DNA of 64,000 bases, from sequence record GU911519.1. One strand, 5' to 3'. Made by a program: the position numbers and the translations under genes. A model generated the notes under the pieces. The model did no database searches and was not told the origin of the DNA. It was given only the letters and a program-made list of their open reading frames with translations. The stretch comes from Acinetobacter phage Acj61. This document shows, one piece after another, positions 3,987 through 32,608 of the stretch. Position 1 is the stretch's first letter, and every line of letters starts with the position of its first letter.

Positions 3987-4449
3987 TTAATTCAATGTCA
4001 ACTTCATGATCTTTTTCTTGAACAACTTCCAATTTGTCGCCAGATGGACGATATTTGTGAAAGAAGTCCCATGCGTCAAATTGAGGATTTCGATCAAAAC
4101 TAATCAATTCGAGCTTTAAGAAGATTTCAAAATGAGAATCATCAATGACTTCTTCATTGCGTTGGCAAGGAGTCAGAGCCATGAATGAACCATGTTGACT
4201 CATAGGACGTCCATTCTTTTCGTACTCTTTAATGAGTTGAATGAAACTTTGTTCAGCACTGCCTACATAGAACTTGCCTTTGCGATGATGCCTAGCGAAT
4301 CGATCTGTTGGCATCGTTACTTTGATTGCTTCCCAATCTACACACATTGGTACTGTGATCATTTTGTAACCACGAGATGCATAGAATTCTAGCGCATGGT
4401 ACAGCATAGGTAAATTGATTTCGAAACGTGAGTCCATATTATACTCCAA
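3862..4449 (-). CDS. class II aminoacyl-tRNA synthetase-like catalytic core, truncated (195 aa; AsnA/EpmA/AsxRS-like)
   Basis: Motif-2-like 'ALTPCQRNEEV..DSHFEIFLKLE' (FRNE-type) and motif-3-like 'GTGLAMPRISYA' (GLGIDR-type) in a 195-aa ORF. Confidence 0.5.
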   Translation of the reverse strand: MEYNMDSRFEINLPMLYHALEFYASRGYKMITVPMCVDWEAIKVTMPTDRFARHHRKGKFYVGSAEQSFIQLIKEYEKNGRPMSQHGSFMALTPCQRNEEVIDDSHFEIFLKLELISFDRNPQFDAWDFFHKYRPSGDKLEVVQEKDHEVDIELNGVEIGSYGQRTVDGITFNYGTGLAMPRISYAISKGVHSLA

Positions 4450-12677: not shown

Positions 12678-12698
12678 AAAAAGGACAACTAGTGTCCT
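12678..12698 (-). terminator. intrinsic terminator after the GIY-YIG gene
   Basis: Minus strand reads AGGACA-CTAGT-TGTCCT-TTTTTG. The stop codon sits in the loop. Confidence 0.55.
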
Positions 12699-13123
12699 TG
12701 AGTTTGTGCACGAGACTTGCCTTTGCACATTTTTGAGTACCAATCTTCATAGAAAACTGGGTCTTTCAATTTTTCTTGAAACACTTTTGATGCACGTTCA
12801 GCTCGTTCTTGGCGATCTTCTTTGGTCATAGTAGCATTGATGTAATCAAAACCACCTGTGCCTCCGAGCTTGAGATTGTATGTGTCATCTCGATCAATGA
12901 ACTCTTGATCTACAAGTTGAGATTCATGCTCAAACATTTCTTCTTGAGATGAATGAAATTTGAGGATTTCTTTTTCAAATTTGTCAGCTCCATATTTAGC
13001 CATAGCACGTTTGAGAATTGTGCCTGAACCCATGTAGCCATCATTGAGACGTTTGGTTTTGTGGGCTCCTATGTAAATGTGTTTAGTGACTGAATTTGTG
13101 ATTTTGTATGTGTAAAAATACAT
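12689..13123 (-). CDS. GIY-YIG homing endonuclease (seg-like, short; 144 aa)
   Basis: '[26 protein letters not shown]' GIY-YIG motif. Own minus-strand late promoter at 13186..13193. Confidence 0.8.
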   Translation of the reverse strand: MYFYTYKITNSVTKHIYIGAHKTKRLNDGYMGSGTILKRAMAKYGADKFEKEILKFHSSQEEMFEHESQLVDQEFIDRDDTYNLKLGGTGGFDYINATMTKEDRQERAERASKVFQEKLKDPVFYEDWYSKMCKGKSRAQTQGH

Positions 13124-20356: not shown

Positions 20357-21196
20357 TTATTTCCAGACCTTGTTAGCACTAAATTTCTTACCGTTAGATA
20401 AAAATTGCTGTAATGGCATCAACACGACATTTGCCCAATCAGAAGGTTTAATTTCGATAATTGGACCTTTGATGTGTGCGGGTAGATATGCTTTAATCAT
20501 CTGATCAGCGCCTTGAAATCCTTTGACCTTGGACCAGTCAATGTTTAACTTTGTGCTGTTAGTGATTGTCTTCGTGTTAGCATATTGCTTCAATAAGTCT
20601 TCAAGAAATTGCTGACGTGCTTTAGGTGGAATATAGTGCAAGTTCAAACCATGCATGAGCAGTGTGTTACTCTTTGATGACTTGTAGAATCCAAGAAAAA
20701 CGATAAGTGGATATTTGTCCCAGTATGGAAGTGTGTCTTTGTGTTTAGCATCATATTGATATGCATAGACTTTTCCAGGAGTAGGACGAGAAACTTTGTG
20801 TCCTTTGACACCCTTACGAAGAGTATCAGCAAACCATTTCGCAGATTTGTTGTTCTGCGCAGCACCTTTGTCGGCGACTCGAGCCCGCAAAGATTGTCTA
20901 AAGCTATTGATCATTATGACAGCACGATCTTCACGAGTCAACTTGTTGTCAGGCTTTTTAGCTAATGCTTCAGCTTTAACAGCAAGTGCGATCTTCAATT
21001 TGAAACGTGTCATTGATCGACTGAATGTGCTGTAGTTGAGTCCTTTCTCTTCTGCGAATGCTTTGCCAGAAACGCCTTTTGCTTTAGCTTTGTACCATTC
21101 GACACCAATATTGACCCATTGGAGCTCGTCCTTTGTCATCTTAGGCAGATTGCTCTTTTGAATCTGTGTTGATTCATCAATTTGGAAAATACTCAT
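20357..21196 (-). CDS. 2: gp2 DNA-end protector protein (279 aa)
   Basis: Size matches T4 gp2 (274 aa) and synteny 3-2-4 holds. The protein is basic. Confidence 0.6.
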
Positions 21197-21837
21197 ACTA
21201 TCTCCTTCATTCTACAATTGTCGCCATGCCATCGTTTGTATGGAGCTGGCTTGCAGCTCTTTTGACAATGTGGACATACTTTATCAGGGGTATTTATGAA
21301 TGCAGATCGCATAGAGGCTTTGGCTGATTCTGAACGAGGAATACCTCTGAGCAATTCTGCTCGTCGCTTGACATCTTCTTCAGGCATCTTAAATCCTTTT
21401 GTTGCTTTAGAAATCTTGAGCTTAGTAGCATTAGACAATTTCTTGCCTTTATGAGCTACTGACATTTTGGCCTTTGATTCTGCAGAATGAGTTTTACCGG
21501 TTGCAACAATTCTCATTGACTCGGCGATTTTCTTACGAACTTCTTCAGACCGAGCACCGCCACCTTTTCCGCCTAAGTCAATGTTATAGTTTGTATCCAA
21601 CTTAACAAATTCTTCCGTGACGAGTTCTGATTCAGCGTCGAACATTTCTTGTTCAGTTTCAAATACATGCAGAATTTCCTTTGAGAAATTTTCTGTACCA
21701 TGTTTAGCAATAGCCTTCAATATTAATCTTCCTGAGCCAAGATATGAGTCATTCACATCATGAGTTTTGTGAGCCCCGATATAGATTTTGCCGTTGATGC
21801 TATTTGTTACTTTATAGACTGTATAAAAAATGTTCAT
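21193..21837 (-). CDS. GIY-YIG homing endonuclease (seg-like, 214 aa)
   Basis: '[27 protein letters not shown]', plus a C-terminal Cys/His-rich DNA-binding tail. Inserted between genes 2 and 4. Confidence 0.85.
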
Positions 21838-30400: not shown

Positions 30401-30479
30401 GGTTGATTTACGACTTAAGTCAAACATCGGAAATCCACGTGACCCAGAACATCCAACACAGGTAAAAGTAGATGAATGA
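27399..30479 (+). CDS. 7: gp7 baseplate wedge protein (1026 aa)
   Basis: Size (T4 1032 aa) and synteny. Confidence 0.8.
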   Translation: MTVKAPSITSLTIAKLSATSVSLKWDEVGENFYYFVEVAKTREPGNISWQSLGYTSDNFWFSSDLAKLTYYKFRIAVGAEGFEQSDWVETEELQTFEQNAYTFELMNELTLNKTFINEKFLKGNNSYVDFNRDVIWAALTNEQFTYSDGYSHISQMSNFIIKENEYHEIQGSIQKVCKDLERMYLMEDDGVLYLFERWQGLVKVSNDKGQNWQAVKLLNDRVGWPLSQTVFYQTSSTNYVLGWDRIFYGRKSTDTRWSSDEVRFSAEDITFAKKGDTLKLGFDVNIFGTYARLPGDVSQIAEAITANDDYIYVVARDKVRFAKAKNAPIDTDPLSSTFGEKLFEDESHTITGNPKVVTWKMDSVEGRVFALVIGEMEQAGQDPRKFPILDSLDKGVYILEDHDTGKWTRVFGNTEEERRRIELGYTNMSCDNKEIFISSSNYKILDKDLVPDTELPAKYPGVVSSAVKPLIEQQFLHDKHYLMMSFRANGFDGWDKWKPGRMRYYAEPFFSKCTNSGTRCWVNNDWRVVMVYSDVEHSYAIDPASISSPDRVMKEVWKAGDCTVISPNVEFKNFTQYASGVMFYRYSGELIGYYEFNYRVKDNVRIVWKPSNVMLRAYLQNQEWPTEWKPDDEGGYNNPDLRPFLTKMIPDSYLLEDSNFEKFCQYYLQYLSDGYGTSYNNLVNLIRDKYPKEKHSWEYMWSEIYKRNIYLNKDKRDLVSRFFETRKNDFYSTKGVEASYKFLFKALYNEDVEIDIESNNGLEYDIIVQSDNITEDLAGRTIYTPTGRSNVTYIERHYAKGKLQWRLTIHNLMGRFLAGQEIKSERTNFEGMIVQGVRGKDMSSNTIEYINRSRAYYVMKIKSQLPTSRYRDDVLRFVHPVGFGFIGITLLTMFINAGLSLKHVETIINTYKNYRWDSGLPSHYPDRVAVIGPNGKIEHDITTGEPIYSPTGREDEEFPLRPDYMSINNTTYYGLDADQRRRPMSPLFDQSAVTFSKFRALVDLRLKSNIGNPRDPEHPTQVKVDE

Positions 30480-31476
30480 TTCAAGCGTAGTTTATCGTGC
30501 CATTATCACCTCAAAATTTCGTACTGAAAAGATGCTAAATTTTTATCAGACGATCGGTAATGGTGCTGACAAAAATTCAATTTACTTGTCATTTGGACGA
30601 GATACACCTTGGGCCTCAAACGAGAACGATCCTGGATTTGCACCGCCTTATCCAGTCGATAATACTCGAGGCGTTGAAGATGTATGGACTAATATGCTTG
30701 GAGCAGTGAAAGTTAATCAATCACTGCTCGATGCAGTTATTCCTCGTAAAGATTGGGGTGACGTTCGTTACTCCAATTCTCGTACATTCCAAATCGGCGA
30801 GATTATTGTCACAAACACTGCACCGTACAACCGAGTTACAGGTGCTGAAGGATGGCTCGTGTATCGGGTTGTCGATGTTCCAAGTCTCGGTGTATGTTCG
30901 ATTGGTTCAATTACCGACAAAGGTGAATGTATCAAGCTCGGTGGAAAATGGACTACTTCCGTTGAGTCTCGTTTTGCTCCAAGTGGACGTGGTGACACAG
31001 AAGGAATGGTAGACACTGGTGATGGCTATCTATGGGAATACTTGTATGAGATTCCACCTGACGTTTCAATCAACCGCTGTACAAATGAACACATCGTTGT
31101 GCCATGGCCTGATGAACTCGGTAGTGACCCTGCTCGTTGGGGTTATCAGCACAATTTATCATGGCAACAAAATGATTTTGGATTGATTTTCCGAATCAAA
31201 GCAGTTTCAATGCGATTTAAAGCATTCTTTGACTCAGTACATTTCCCTAACGCATCTGTGCTTGGTAACAAAGGCTTCCGTCAATTATCTATGATTGTCA
31301 ATCCATTTGAAGCAAAAGCAAAACCTACTGACCCTAACGTGAAAGCAGAAAAAGAAAATTATTCTGCAAATCAATTGTTCCGTCATTCAGGTGAAATGGT
31401 CTACATTGAGAATCGACAACCAATCGTTCGCTCTATGGACCAGACAGAAGAAATAAACATTATTTTTGAATTCTAA
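30472..31476 (+). CDS. 8: gp8 baseplate wedge protein (334 aa)
   Basis: Size identical to T4 gp8, synteny, 8-nt overlap with gene 7. Confidence 0.75.
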   Translation: MNDSSVVYRAIITSKFRTEKMLNFYQTIGNGADKNSIYLSFGRDTPWASNENDPGFAPPYPVDNTRGVEDVWTNMLGAVKVNQSLLDAVIPRKDWGDVRYSNSRTFQIGEIIVTNTAPYNRVTGAEGWLVYRVVDVPSLGVCSIGSITDKGECIKLGGKWTTSVESRFAPSGRGDTEGMVDTGDGYLWEYLYEIPPDVSINRCTNEHIVVPWPDELGSDPARWGYQHNLSWQQNDFGLIFRIKAVSMRFKAFFDSVHFPNASVLGNKGFRQLSMIVNPFEAKAKPTDPNVKAEKENYSANQLFRHSGEMVYIENRQPIVRSMDQTEEINIIFEF

Positions 31477-31506
31477 GTTATTGATTTATAAAGGATTTTT
31501 ATTAGA

Positions 31507-31650
31507 ATGTATAATTTTACTTACTTAACTACTAATTTGATTAATGGCAAGATGTATTATGGCGTGCATTCTACTAAAAACATTAATGACGGGTATATAG
31601 GGTCTGGAAAGGCCCTTAAACTAGCAATACAAATCATGCAAAGGTTTTGA
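31507..31650 (+). pseudogene. GIY-YIG homing endonuclease N-terminal remnant (47 codons)
   Basis: Translates to 'MYNFTYLTTNLINGKMYYGVHSTKNINDGYIGSGKALKLAIQIMQRF*', matching the N-termini of the two full seg-like genes. Confidence 0.6.
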
Positions 31651-31670
31651 ATGGCATTACATATAAAGGA

Positions 31671-31699
31671 AAAGGAGCCCAGTGCTCCTTTTCGTTTTT
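31671..31699 (+). terminator. intrinsic terminator after gene 8 and the endonuclease remnant
   Basis: AAGGAGC-CCAGT-GCTCCTT followed by TTCGTTTTT. Confidence 0.6.
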
Positions 31700-31707
31700 G
31701 TATAAAT
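31700..31707 (+). promoter_or_regulatory. late promoter TATAAATA for gene 9
   Basis: Exact TATAAATA 22 nt upstream of the ATG. Confidence 0.6.
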
Positions 31708-31729
31708 AATAAAATTAAGAGGATTTCCT

Positions 31730-32608
31730 ATGATCAATCAAGAAGTAAAGCAATACATTGACGTTGGTGAAATCGGTAACGCATCTACTGGCGACATCTT
31801 ATATGATGGTGGTGTCAAAATCAACCACAACTTCGACAGTGTCTACAATGCTTTCGGTGATCAACGCTTAGGTTCTGTAGGACACGGCGAAGGACATCAA
31901 ACCATCCATGCTACCGGCTACTACCAAAAAGTTACTCAACATGATTTTCGTACTCCAATTGGCTTAGGTACAATGTGGGATGTCGATACGACAACTGGCG
32001 CTGCAAGCCCAATGATCGTTGAAGGAAAACCAGGTGAATGCGTAGTGTTTGTGAACACAAATGGCTCATTCTCTGTCAATAGTCCACTTTCAATTGGCGT
32101 TGCTTCTGGTTCATTTGTTGGAGTTCAAGGCGCATTAAATATTACTGTACCATTTGCACGAGTCGAATGCTGGTGTATCAAGAAAGAGAATGGCGTTGCT
32201 GTTTGGGATTATTCTGTTTCGTCATTATTTGGTGACAAACAAACTCCAATCAACAAAACTGTTGCTGTTACAGGTGCCGAATCCAAAGTTCGAATTGCAC
32301 ACGTGGATGAGTACAACACAATCAAATTGATGCTAACAGCTATGAACACAAATAGTTCAAAAATGCGTCAATCCGAAATTAACTTACTGATCGAAAACAC
32401 ACCAGGTATTGAGCACACAAAGAAAAAGGTTCATGCAACTGAGTTCGCAGTTTTCCGAGTTGGAAACATCAATGAAGATGATGAGATCATCAAAATTGGA
32501 TTCGATATCGATGCGAATGGATTCGTCAATGCTGTAGTGTCATCATCAGTAGCAGGTATTAAACTTGCAATCAAGAGTATTGCAACACAGAGAGTTGGAG
32601 CTGCATAA
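31730..32608 (+). CDS. 9: gp9 baseplate wedge / long-tail-fibre socket protein (292 aa)
   Basis: Size (T4 288 aa) and synteny. Confidence 0.7.
   Translation: MINQEVKQYIDVGEIGNASTGDILYDGGVKINHNFDSVYNAFGDQRLGSVGHGEGHQTIHATGYYQKVTQHDFRTPIGLGTMWDVDTTTGAASPMIVEGKPGECVVFVNTNGSFSVNSPLSIGVASGSFVGVQGALNITVPFARVECWCIKKENGVAVWDYSVSSLFGDKQTPINKTVAVTGAESKVRIAHVDEYNTIKLMLTAMNTNSSKMRQSEINLLIENTPGIEHTKKKVHATEFAVFRVGNINEDDEIIKIGFDIDANGFVNAVVSSSVAGIKLAIKSIATQRVGAA

Follow-up and report, generated by a model that had tools for sequence, protein, structure and literature searches.

The window analysed here is a 64,000-nucleotide stretch of the genome of Acinetobacter phage Acj61 (sequence record GU911519.1), and the element of interest lies in the 253-nt spacer that separates gene 8 from gene 9 (positions 31477-31729). 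A sequence-only reading of the window had placed in this spacer an open reading frame (ORF) of 47 codons at 31507-31650, had regarded it as the decayed remnant of a seg-type GIY-YIG homing endonuclease gene (HEG), and had described a terminator and the late promoter of gene 9 behind it. The ORF, on the plus strand, translates to MYNFTYLTTNLINGKMYYGVHSTKNINDGYIGSGKALKLAIQIMQRF; its coordinates and translation proved to be exact, and both the terminator hairpin and the promoter motif were confirmed. We conclude that a Seg-type HEG of ~250 codons very probably inserted between gp8 and gp9 and was reduced by a single internal deletion to this 47-codon relic. This conclusion rests on the homology of both ends of the relic, the deletion junction, the existence of empty, long and remnant alleles, the recoded tail of gene 8, the transfer of the cassette between phages, and the relaxed selection on what remains. 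The features of the locus are as follows.

30472..31476, plus strand: gene 8 (gp8), baseplate wedge subunit; 334-aa ORF, with a Pfam Phage-Gp8 match on identical metagenome-contig products
31434..31476, plus strand: recoded 3′ end of gene 8 (last ~13 codons and TAA), left arm of the mobile cassette
31477..31506, plus strand: 5′ untranslated leader of the HEG, with a ribosome-binding site (RBS), AAAGGA, at 31490-31495
31507..31650, plus strand: 47-codon ORF, YP_004009782.1
31507..31633, plus strand: retained 5′ part of the HEG, codons 1-42, with the first two GIY-YIG motif elements (FTY ... YYG)
31634..31666, plus strand: retained 3′ end of the HEG, last 10 codons SCKGFEWHYI and TAA, in frame +1 relative to the 5′ part
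31669..31693, plus strand: predicted intrinsic terminator hairpin of the gene 8 transcript (dG -18.9 kcal/mol, z = -6)
31701..31708, plus strand: gene 9 late promoter TATAAATA, of T4-type consensus, read from the sequence
31717..31723, plus strand: gene 9 RBS, AAGAGGA, with the gene 9 ATG at 31730
31730..32608, plus strand: gene 9 (gp9), baseplate wedge / tail-fibre socket; 292-aa ORF, with Pfam T4_gp9_10 on homologous products

That the ORF is a truncated HEG is already on record. Its 47-aa product is identical at 47/47 residues to ADG36130.1 (YP_004009782.1), annotated in Acj61 (GU911519 / NC_014661) as a 'putative truncated Seg-like homing endonuclease', and Acj61 has been reported to carry three seg-like GIY-YIG HEGs and no other HEG (Petrov et al. 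2010, Table 5, PMC2993671). The GenBank/RefSeq annotation agrees with the present analysis in both sequence and interpretation. As an existing annotation and a published count, the truncation itself changes nothing for specialists. However, the annotation gives only a name for the ORF; the anatomy of the deletion, the allelic series, the recoded gp8 tail and the transfer between phage backgrounds are added here.

Relation to Seg-type endonucleases and anatomy of the deletion

How much of a homing endonuclease is left in the spacer? We built a family hidden Markov model (HMM) from the two other seg-like genes of the window, two intact orthologs and seven metagenomic relatives, leaving out the remnant, which matched the model with E=9.7e-22 over HMM positions 2-45. 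By tblastn, the 47-aa peptide matched 850 phage records over residues 1-42, with ~67% identity to segE-type genes, among them those of RB3, RB5, Kha5h and PST. Against Pfam, the peptide reached 12.6 bits for SegE_GIY-YIG, under the cutoff of 25, and gave no match to PF01541; the intact orthologs and the long allele described below need residues 3-73 for a PF01541 match, and the remnant keeps only 42 homologous residues. Its N-terminal Seg GIY-YIG homology is therefore present, whereas it lacks a complete catalytic domain (~75-95 aa, reaching the conserved Glu and Asn region) and the C-terminal DNA-binding modules (NUMOD3 repeats and a terminal NUMOD1/HTH-like helix), of which the last 10 codons survive out of frame. 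A product without the catalytic Glu/Asn region, all of the NUMOD3 repeats and the C-terminal DNA-binding helix cannot be a nuclease.

In the six frames of the 64-kb window, the family HMM detected exactly three GIY-YIG signals. This is also the published number of seg-like HEGs in Acj61, all three of which lie in the window. The other two are the following.

12689..13123, minus strand: Seg-like GIY-YIG gene, 144 aa, catalytic domain only, paralog (Pfam GIY-YIG, 4.6e-6)
21193..21837, minus strand: Seg-like GIY-YIG + NUMOD3 gene, 214 aa, paralog (Pfam)

The sequence-only reading had given the coordinates of these two genes correctly, omitting that both lie on the minus strand, and had described the N-terminus of the ORF as closely matching theirs. 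The match is far above chance (E ~1e-21), but it is not close: the remnant shares 21/41 and 19/36 residues with the two paralogs (51-53%) and 56-61% of the DNA sequence. By comparison, it shares 28/42 residues with the homing endonuclease (HE) encoded between gp8 and gp9 in phage Apostate and 25/41 with that of phage Ac42 (61-67%). Being closer to these positional orthologs than to the two paralogs of the same genome, the remnant did not arise as a recent copy from within that genome. As judged from these comparisons, it is a lineage specific to the gp8-gp9 site and distinct from the two other seg-like genes; the count of three seg-like genes in the window stands, and the implied close paralogy does not. 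We also observed that the 144-aa protein, in which Pfam recognised a GIY-YIG domain and no DNA-binding module, is encoded at full length (100% coverage, ~68% identity) and in a comparable part of the map by many T4-like phages of Acinetobacter that belong to other genera. Selfish HEGs are not usually conserved to this degree, which suggests that the gene has become fixed and may be domesticated.

Directly after the N-terminal homology, the +1 frame reads SCKGFEWHYI and a stop codon (31634..31666), which may be compared with the C-termini of the Apostate enzyme (TCLGYTWEYT-stop) and the Ac42 enzyme (...NHTWRYI-stop). Against the Apostate C-terminus, SCKGFEWHYI has a BLOSUM62 score of 33, a value reached by 0/20,000 shuffles and by 1/75,930 stop-free 10-mers in the six frames of the window, this one being the remnant 3′ end itself. 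At the DNA level, the 3′ remnant is identical to the Apostate gene at 20/30 positions, the same level as the 5′ part, and in both phages the HEG stop codon lies 2 nt before the terminator hairpin. Of the HEG, 127 nt thus survive at the 5′ end and 33 nt at the 3′ end, and the ORF closes with five residues, IMQRF, that come from reading the former C-terminus out of frame. On an assumed gene length of 744-756 nt (~250 codons), about 585-595 nt would be missing. We therefore read the remnant as the product of one clean internal deletion, with its junction between 31633 and 31634 and its two ends joined out of frame.

The left breakpoint is placed between 31633 and 31634 because the long allele, contig L017, departs from the window exactly after 31633; there L017 reads GCAATACAAA before the breakpoint and AATATGG after it. 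For the right side, the breakpoint was estimated from the comparison of TACAAATCATGC in the window with TATCAAACATGC in Apostate. The deletion might have occurred by slippage at the short repeat TACAAA, and the full-length parent allele is predicted to end in TCATGCAAAGGTTTTGAATGGCATTACATATAA (the last 33 nt of a gene of ~750 nt). The sequence-only reading had taken the short ORF for a gene that ends prematurely through decay, and had called it a fossil. Neither description held: a single internal deletion of ~590 nt has kept both ends of the gene, and it is young, since the 5′ part is identical to the long allele at 127/128 nt.

Alleles of the gp8-gp9 site in phages and metagenomes

The sequence-only reading had proposed that related phages be compared for a full-length seg gene between gp8 and gp9, and such a gene, of 247-251 aa, is indeed present in Apostate, DLP3, AC4 and Ac42. 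In Apostate, a 247-aa Seg-like HE (HYQ21_gp224, YP_009886436.1) is encoded exactly between gp8 and gp9, DLP3 and AC4 likewise encode a 247-aa HE at this site, and Ac42 encodes one of 251 aa (Ac42p166, YP_004009528.1); gp8 is annotated as such in Apostate, Minot and Ac42. Pfam identified a GIY-YIG domain and 3-4 NUMOD3 repeats in the Apostate and Ac42 enzymes, and in Ac42 also a borderline NUMOD1 (22.6 bits, cutoff 22.8). These genes resemble the remnant in locus, orientation, leader and a W-x-Y-x-stop C-terminal end, and differ from it in being of full length, whereas the window keeps 42 + 10 codons only. The leader of the window, GTTATTGATTTATAAAGGATTTTTATT, is collinear with that of the intact Apostate gene, with which it shares the pattern GTTATTGATTT.TA..GG.TTTTTATT; it is absent from empty alleles. 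In Minot, DLP1 and most other Acinetobacter T4-like phages, the gp8-gp9 spacer is empty and ~59 nt long.

Unlike in the window, the insertion point in Ac42 (L003, NC_014660) appears to lie inside the gene 8 tail. Right after the HEG stop, at 2377-2394, this phage carries a vestigial TTTTCGAATTCTAA, which is the exact gene 8 3′ end of Apostate and DLP1 and from which the window (31460-31476) differs at one base, while its functional gene 8 has another ending (..TTT TCA TTT TAG). The Ac42 cassette seems to have inserted within the gene 8 tail and to have brought a replacement tail, the old one being left as a vestige.

By megablast of the locus and a 24.6-kb stretch of structural genes against the phage collection, the best matches were Acinetobacter and Enterobacter phages at 72-74% identity, so that Acj61 itself appears to be missing from that collection, and close relatives of the window turned up only as wastewater metagenome contigs. 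Exact look-ups of the gp8 of the window and of the 47-aa product yielded 21 metagenome contigs, mainly from wastewater. The exact gp8 protein was present in five contigs and the exact gp9 protein in none of the contig collection; gp9 and gp10 are more variable than gp8 across related contigs. A scan of IMG/VR with gp9 peptides found no relatives. Exact-pattern scans of viral_contigs and metagenome_contigs for the 5′ junction, the pre-deletion junction and the 3′ remnant gave no hits, and a pattern expected in JGI contig L013 was likewise not returned, from which it is evident that these two collections lack the samples in question.

Among these contigs, the site exists in several states. Four contigs (L004, L006, L007 and L008) carry empty alleles: they are 98-99% identical to the window in nucleotide sequence, their gp8 protein is identical, and their spacer of 60-61 nt consists of the stop codon, one base, the terminator and the late promoter. 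At least eight contigs (L009-L016) have the 47-codon remnant in the same place, and this form is common in wastewater metagenomes. The long allele, L017 (ENA sample ERZ22666056, contig k127_15816651), matches the window base for base, one missing A apart, from the gp8 tail up to 31633 (127/128 nt over the retained 5′ part of the HEG), and continues beyond that point as ...AIQKYGISNFKREVLEYFDTRELASNAEAELITADIVNSDIWYNLNPGGDNCSSGHSETTKLKISK to the end of the contig, for at least 180 nt of GIY-YIG domain (AIQKYGISNFKREVLEYFDTRELASNAEAELITADIVNSDIWYNLNPGGDNC). It passes the Pfam SegE_GIY-YIG threshold and has ~70% nucleotide identity to the Apostate gene. A longer version of the same gene thus occurs at the same site in a near-identical allele, and we take L017 to be the pre-deletion allele. 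A protein search for the full-length parent with the repaired N-terminus of L017 gave a best match of 58% identity. In the 40-codon form (L018-L024), 42 nt corresponding to window positions 31611-31652 are missing, with an identical junction, GGAAAGGCATTACATATAAAATAAAGGAGC, in 7/7 contigs. ORF variants of 47, 40 and 38 codons were found, and a frameshifted form exists besides this second deletion, together with the point variants G14V, G19D, D28G, G29R, A36V and K38E.

Taken over phages and metagenomes, the site is occupied in Apostate, DLP3, AC4, Ac42 and L009-L024, and empty in Minot, DLP1, many other phages, L004 and L006-L008. That a seg-type endonuclease once sat between gp8 and gp9, as the sequence-only reading had proposed, is thus borne out by the intact orthologs at the site, by the long allele L017 and by the GenBank annotation. 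One site in Acj61-like wastewater phages shows an empty allele, a long allele, two successive deletion relics and a frameshifted copy. To a specialist, this series will be unsurprising, being the textbook cycle of HEG invasion, decay and loss.

Two further contigs deserve mention. L005 (Logan ERR13714751_1981) carries the allele of the window, and the contig ends inside it; at 4128-4153, it contains a fold-back that is the reverse complement of the preceding 26 nt (window 31591-31616), an assembly artefact. Because of this artefact, L005 cannot distinguish a long from a truncated HEG, and its variant S33P, which abuts the fold-back at the contig end, is probably part of it and was left out of the substitution count. 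In L015 (ENA ERZ28614756 scaffold_159217), the gp8 tail, the 47-codon remnant and the terminator are followed by complete divergence (from about locus position 310 onwards), with a 252-aa minus-strand gene in place of gene 9; the contig represents a chimeric assembly or else a genome that has been rearranged.

The gene 8 tail and movement of the cassette

The insertion is accompanied by a change in the essential gene next to it. Between the window and the empty alleles, background divergence is 0.4-1.1%, whereas the last 39 nt of gene 8 contain 8-9 third-codon differences (P<=4e-10); over the last 12 codons, about 10 synonymous positions differ. The stop codon of gene 8 is TAA in the window and TGA in the empty alleles, and the gp8 protein (…SMDQTEEINIIFEF) is the same. 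Downstream of the insertion, the first mismatch between the window and the empty alleles is 120-500 nt away. This pattern is replicated in an independent pair, Apostate (which has the HEG) and DLP1 (empty), two phages of the same genus that are 97-98.5% identical overall, by their clustered synonymous differences: nine mismatches lie at -67..-20 before the gp8 stop, and none in the 90 nt downstream of the HEG. The Apostate gp8 tail is thus recoded relative to an empty allele of the same genus, as in the window. In both pairs, the (I/V)(N/S) codons that follow GAAGAA are changed (ATC AAT to ATA AAC; GTC AGC to GTT TCC). The site therefore shows a linked polymorphism of the flanking target gene, of the kind left by co-conversion, and we infer that the recoded gene 8 tail was acquired by co-conversion and presents the nuclease with a target that it cannot cut.

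The recoded tail and the HEG sequence travel together. In phages whose gp8 has diverged by ~15%, 0-1/43 positions differ across 31434-31476, and in L017 and L020-L024 only 2-3/177 nt differ across 31434-31610 (P<=1.5e-9), although gp7, gp8, gp9 and gp10 of these contigs differ from those of the window by 14-24%, and gp8 alone by 15-17%. Taken as a whole (about 31434-31668), the cassette keeps at least 98% identity in phages with flanking genes that differ by 15-24%. The left border of the cassette is sharp at ~31432-31435, and the right border is the start of the terminator. Because the cassette is near-identical across diverged flanks, a unit of about 31434-31668 must have moved between phages after those phages had split. 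Furthermore, the backgrounds of L018/19 and L020-24 are 81.8% identical, and yet they share the same 40-codon derivative; L017, with the long form, and L020, with the 40-codon form, are 97.6% identical. The occurrence of one derivative in diverged backgrounds indicates that nuclease-dead cassettes, too, have moved between lineages.

History of the insertion and signals in the spacer

How might this arrangement have arisen? We propose that a free-standing Seg-type GIY-YIG HEG arrived between the gene 8 stop codon and the gene 8 terminator, and that the arriving cassette swapped the last ~13 codons of gene 8 for a synonymously recoded copy. In phages with an empty site, the intact enzyme would have cut somewhere in the last ~45 nt of gene 8. 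Repair of the double-strand break from a co-infecting HEG-bearing genome would then have transferred the HEG and, with it, the interval from the cut to the insertion site. The synonymous recoding would shield carriers from cleavage and leave the essential baseplate protein unchanged. In its position between the gp8 stop and the terminator, the HEG would ride on the late transcript of gene 8, with the late promoter of gene 9 undisturbed. A single deletion would later have fused codon 42, out of frame, with the final 10 codons, and the remnant would now be neutral DNA in the 3′ untranslated region of the gene 8 late transcript. The homing mechanism proposed here is modelled on the behaviour of SegF and SegG of T4, which cleave within the adjacent gene in phages that lack the HEG and whose spread is accompanied by co-conversion of flanking markers. 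The Seg endonucleases of T4 (SegA-G) are likewise free-standing GIY-YIG HEGs that lie between conserved phage genes, and the best matches found here are of the SegE type; in contrast to them, the remnant occupies another locus in a phage of another host genus, and its gene is dead. In T4, no HEG is known between genes 8 and 9.

Other HEG relics are found in T4-type phages, namely the truncated HEG in the nrdB intron of T4 and the relic in the gene 43 intron of phage JSE (Petrov et al. 2010, PMC2993671). Like the Acj61 remnant, they were inactivated by deletion at the homing site, but they are intron-encoded, whereas the remnant is free-standing. More speculatively, the remnant cassette itself might act as a non-autonomous 'immunity' allele that spreads in trans, much as a MITE relates to its transposon: in co-infections, empty sites cut by the intact nuclease of a relative could be repaired from the presumably immune remnant allele as well as from the intact one. 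This idea, to which we give about one chance in four in our own estimation, is raised because the identical 40-codon derivative occurs in ~82%-identical backgrounds and the 47-codon form is common in wastewater metagenomes. The same cassette pattern could result from ordinary homologous recombination of co-infecting T4-like phages, with no nuclease involved. The co-converted stretch of an essential baseplate gene points to a probable cut site within the last ~45 nt of gene 8, which makes the Apostate, DLP3 and AC4 enzymes testable and offers a system in which the spread of dead HEG cassettes as immune alleles can be studied.

Could the 47-codon ORF instead be a complete and functional small gene that selection maintains, encoding for instance an anti-homing factor or a GIY-YIG hairpin peptide with a regulatory or dominant-negative role? 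Its frame is open, it begins with an ATG and an AAAGGA lies upstream, and an identical protein is encoded in the isolate and in at least eight independent metagenome contigs. These contigs, however, are ~98-99% identical overall, so that identity of the protein says little. Truncation variants of 40 and 38 aa exist, and substitutions strike motif residues (G19D, D28G, G29R); near-identical phages lack the ORF entirely, and IMQRF is the former C-terminus read out of frame. The ratio of distinct nonsynonymous to synonymous substitutions (N:S) is 6:1 in the residual ORF, as opposed to 48:198 in gp8 and 76:189 in gp9; the ORF differs from gp8 in this respect (Fisher 4e-4), and its ratio agrees with neutral expectation (P=0.44). 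What is left of the ORF thus appears to be under relaxed selection, within the limits of a small sample, which fits neutral decay. A complete, conserved small gene is what the sequence-only reading had named as the finding that would speak against a truncation; the ORF variants of 47, 40 and 38 codons, the N:S of 6:1 and the empty relatives point the other way, and we consider a functional small gene highly improbable. That the remnant is a partial duplicate of another seg-like gene of the same genome, at a site that never held a HEG, is effectively refuted: the N-terminal motif pattern is indeed of the Seg type in all three genes, but the paralogs (51-53% aa, 56-61% nt) are more distant than the Apostate and Ac42 enzymes (61-67% aa), the leader and the C-terminal codons match the gp8-gp9 orthologs as well, and L017 carries the longer gene at this very site.

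Two other histories concern the way in which the gene was lost. Inactivation by a point nonsense mutation or frameshift, with gradual erosion to follow, would account for an ORF that ends at a TGA, which alone resembles a premature stop, and the 1-nt frameshift of the long allele makes inactivation before the deletion conceivable. Erosion would not be expected to leave two clean ends, however, and the spacer contains just 160 nt of HEG-derived sequence in two well-preserved pieces (127/128; 20/30) with a sharp switch between 31633 and 31634, for which reason we regard this course as improbable. The cassette might also be ancestral in the phage group, with the empty alleles arising by secondary loss, given how widely remnant alleles occur (at least three backgrounds, many samples) and that the life cycle of HEGs includes loss. 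Yet precise excision would not recode 10 synonymous sites of gene 8 and change its stop codon, and a cassette that is ~99% identical across backgrounds differing by 15-18% is younger than the split of those backgrounds. An ancestral cassette is therefore unlikely, although individual lineages may have lost it secondarily by recombination with an empty-site phage.

Several points nevertheless weigh against insertion followed by a single deletion and neutral decay. The N:S contrast derives from seven substitutions only, and the 47-codon ORF, unchanged in at least eight contigs, keeps its ATG and a plausible RBS and may still be translated into a peptide. The L017 contig ends 314 nt into the HEG, its 1-nt deletion (TATATAGGG to TATATGGG) is either real or an assembly error, and the Acj61-like group yielded no copy that is demonstrably intact and of full length. 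The right breakpoint and the TACAAA microhomology are inferred from orthologs of 67% identity and not from the true parent.

As for the signals around the remnant, TATAAATA has the T4-type consensus of a late promoter, which is taken from established knowledge of T4, and the motif is also kept in Apostate, Minot, DLP1 and every metagenome allele. A sigma-70-like TTGATT-16-TAGAAT (31481-31508) was considered as a promoter of the ORF and rejected, being within shuffle expectation and having a -10 element that overlaps the ATG. A 36-aa ORF at 31651..31761 was unsupported, overlapping the terminator and the start of gene 9, and an Rfam scan of the spacer returned only sub-threshold chance matches. 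The terminator hairpin is resident phage sequence that forms the right border of the insertion; in empty alleles, it begins 1 nt after the gp8 stop. Its stem is kept among the related contigs, and its loop and upper stem vary (GCCCAGTGC, GCCTTGTGC, GCACTAGTGC and an A..AG form; L004, L009-L024). These variants occur among otherwise near-identical contigs and follow the phage background, not the HEG allele.

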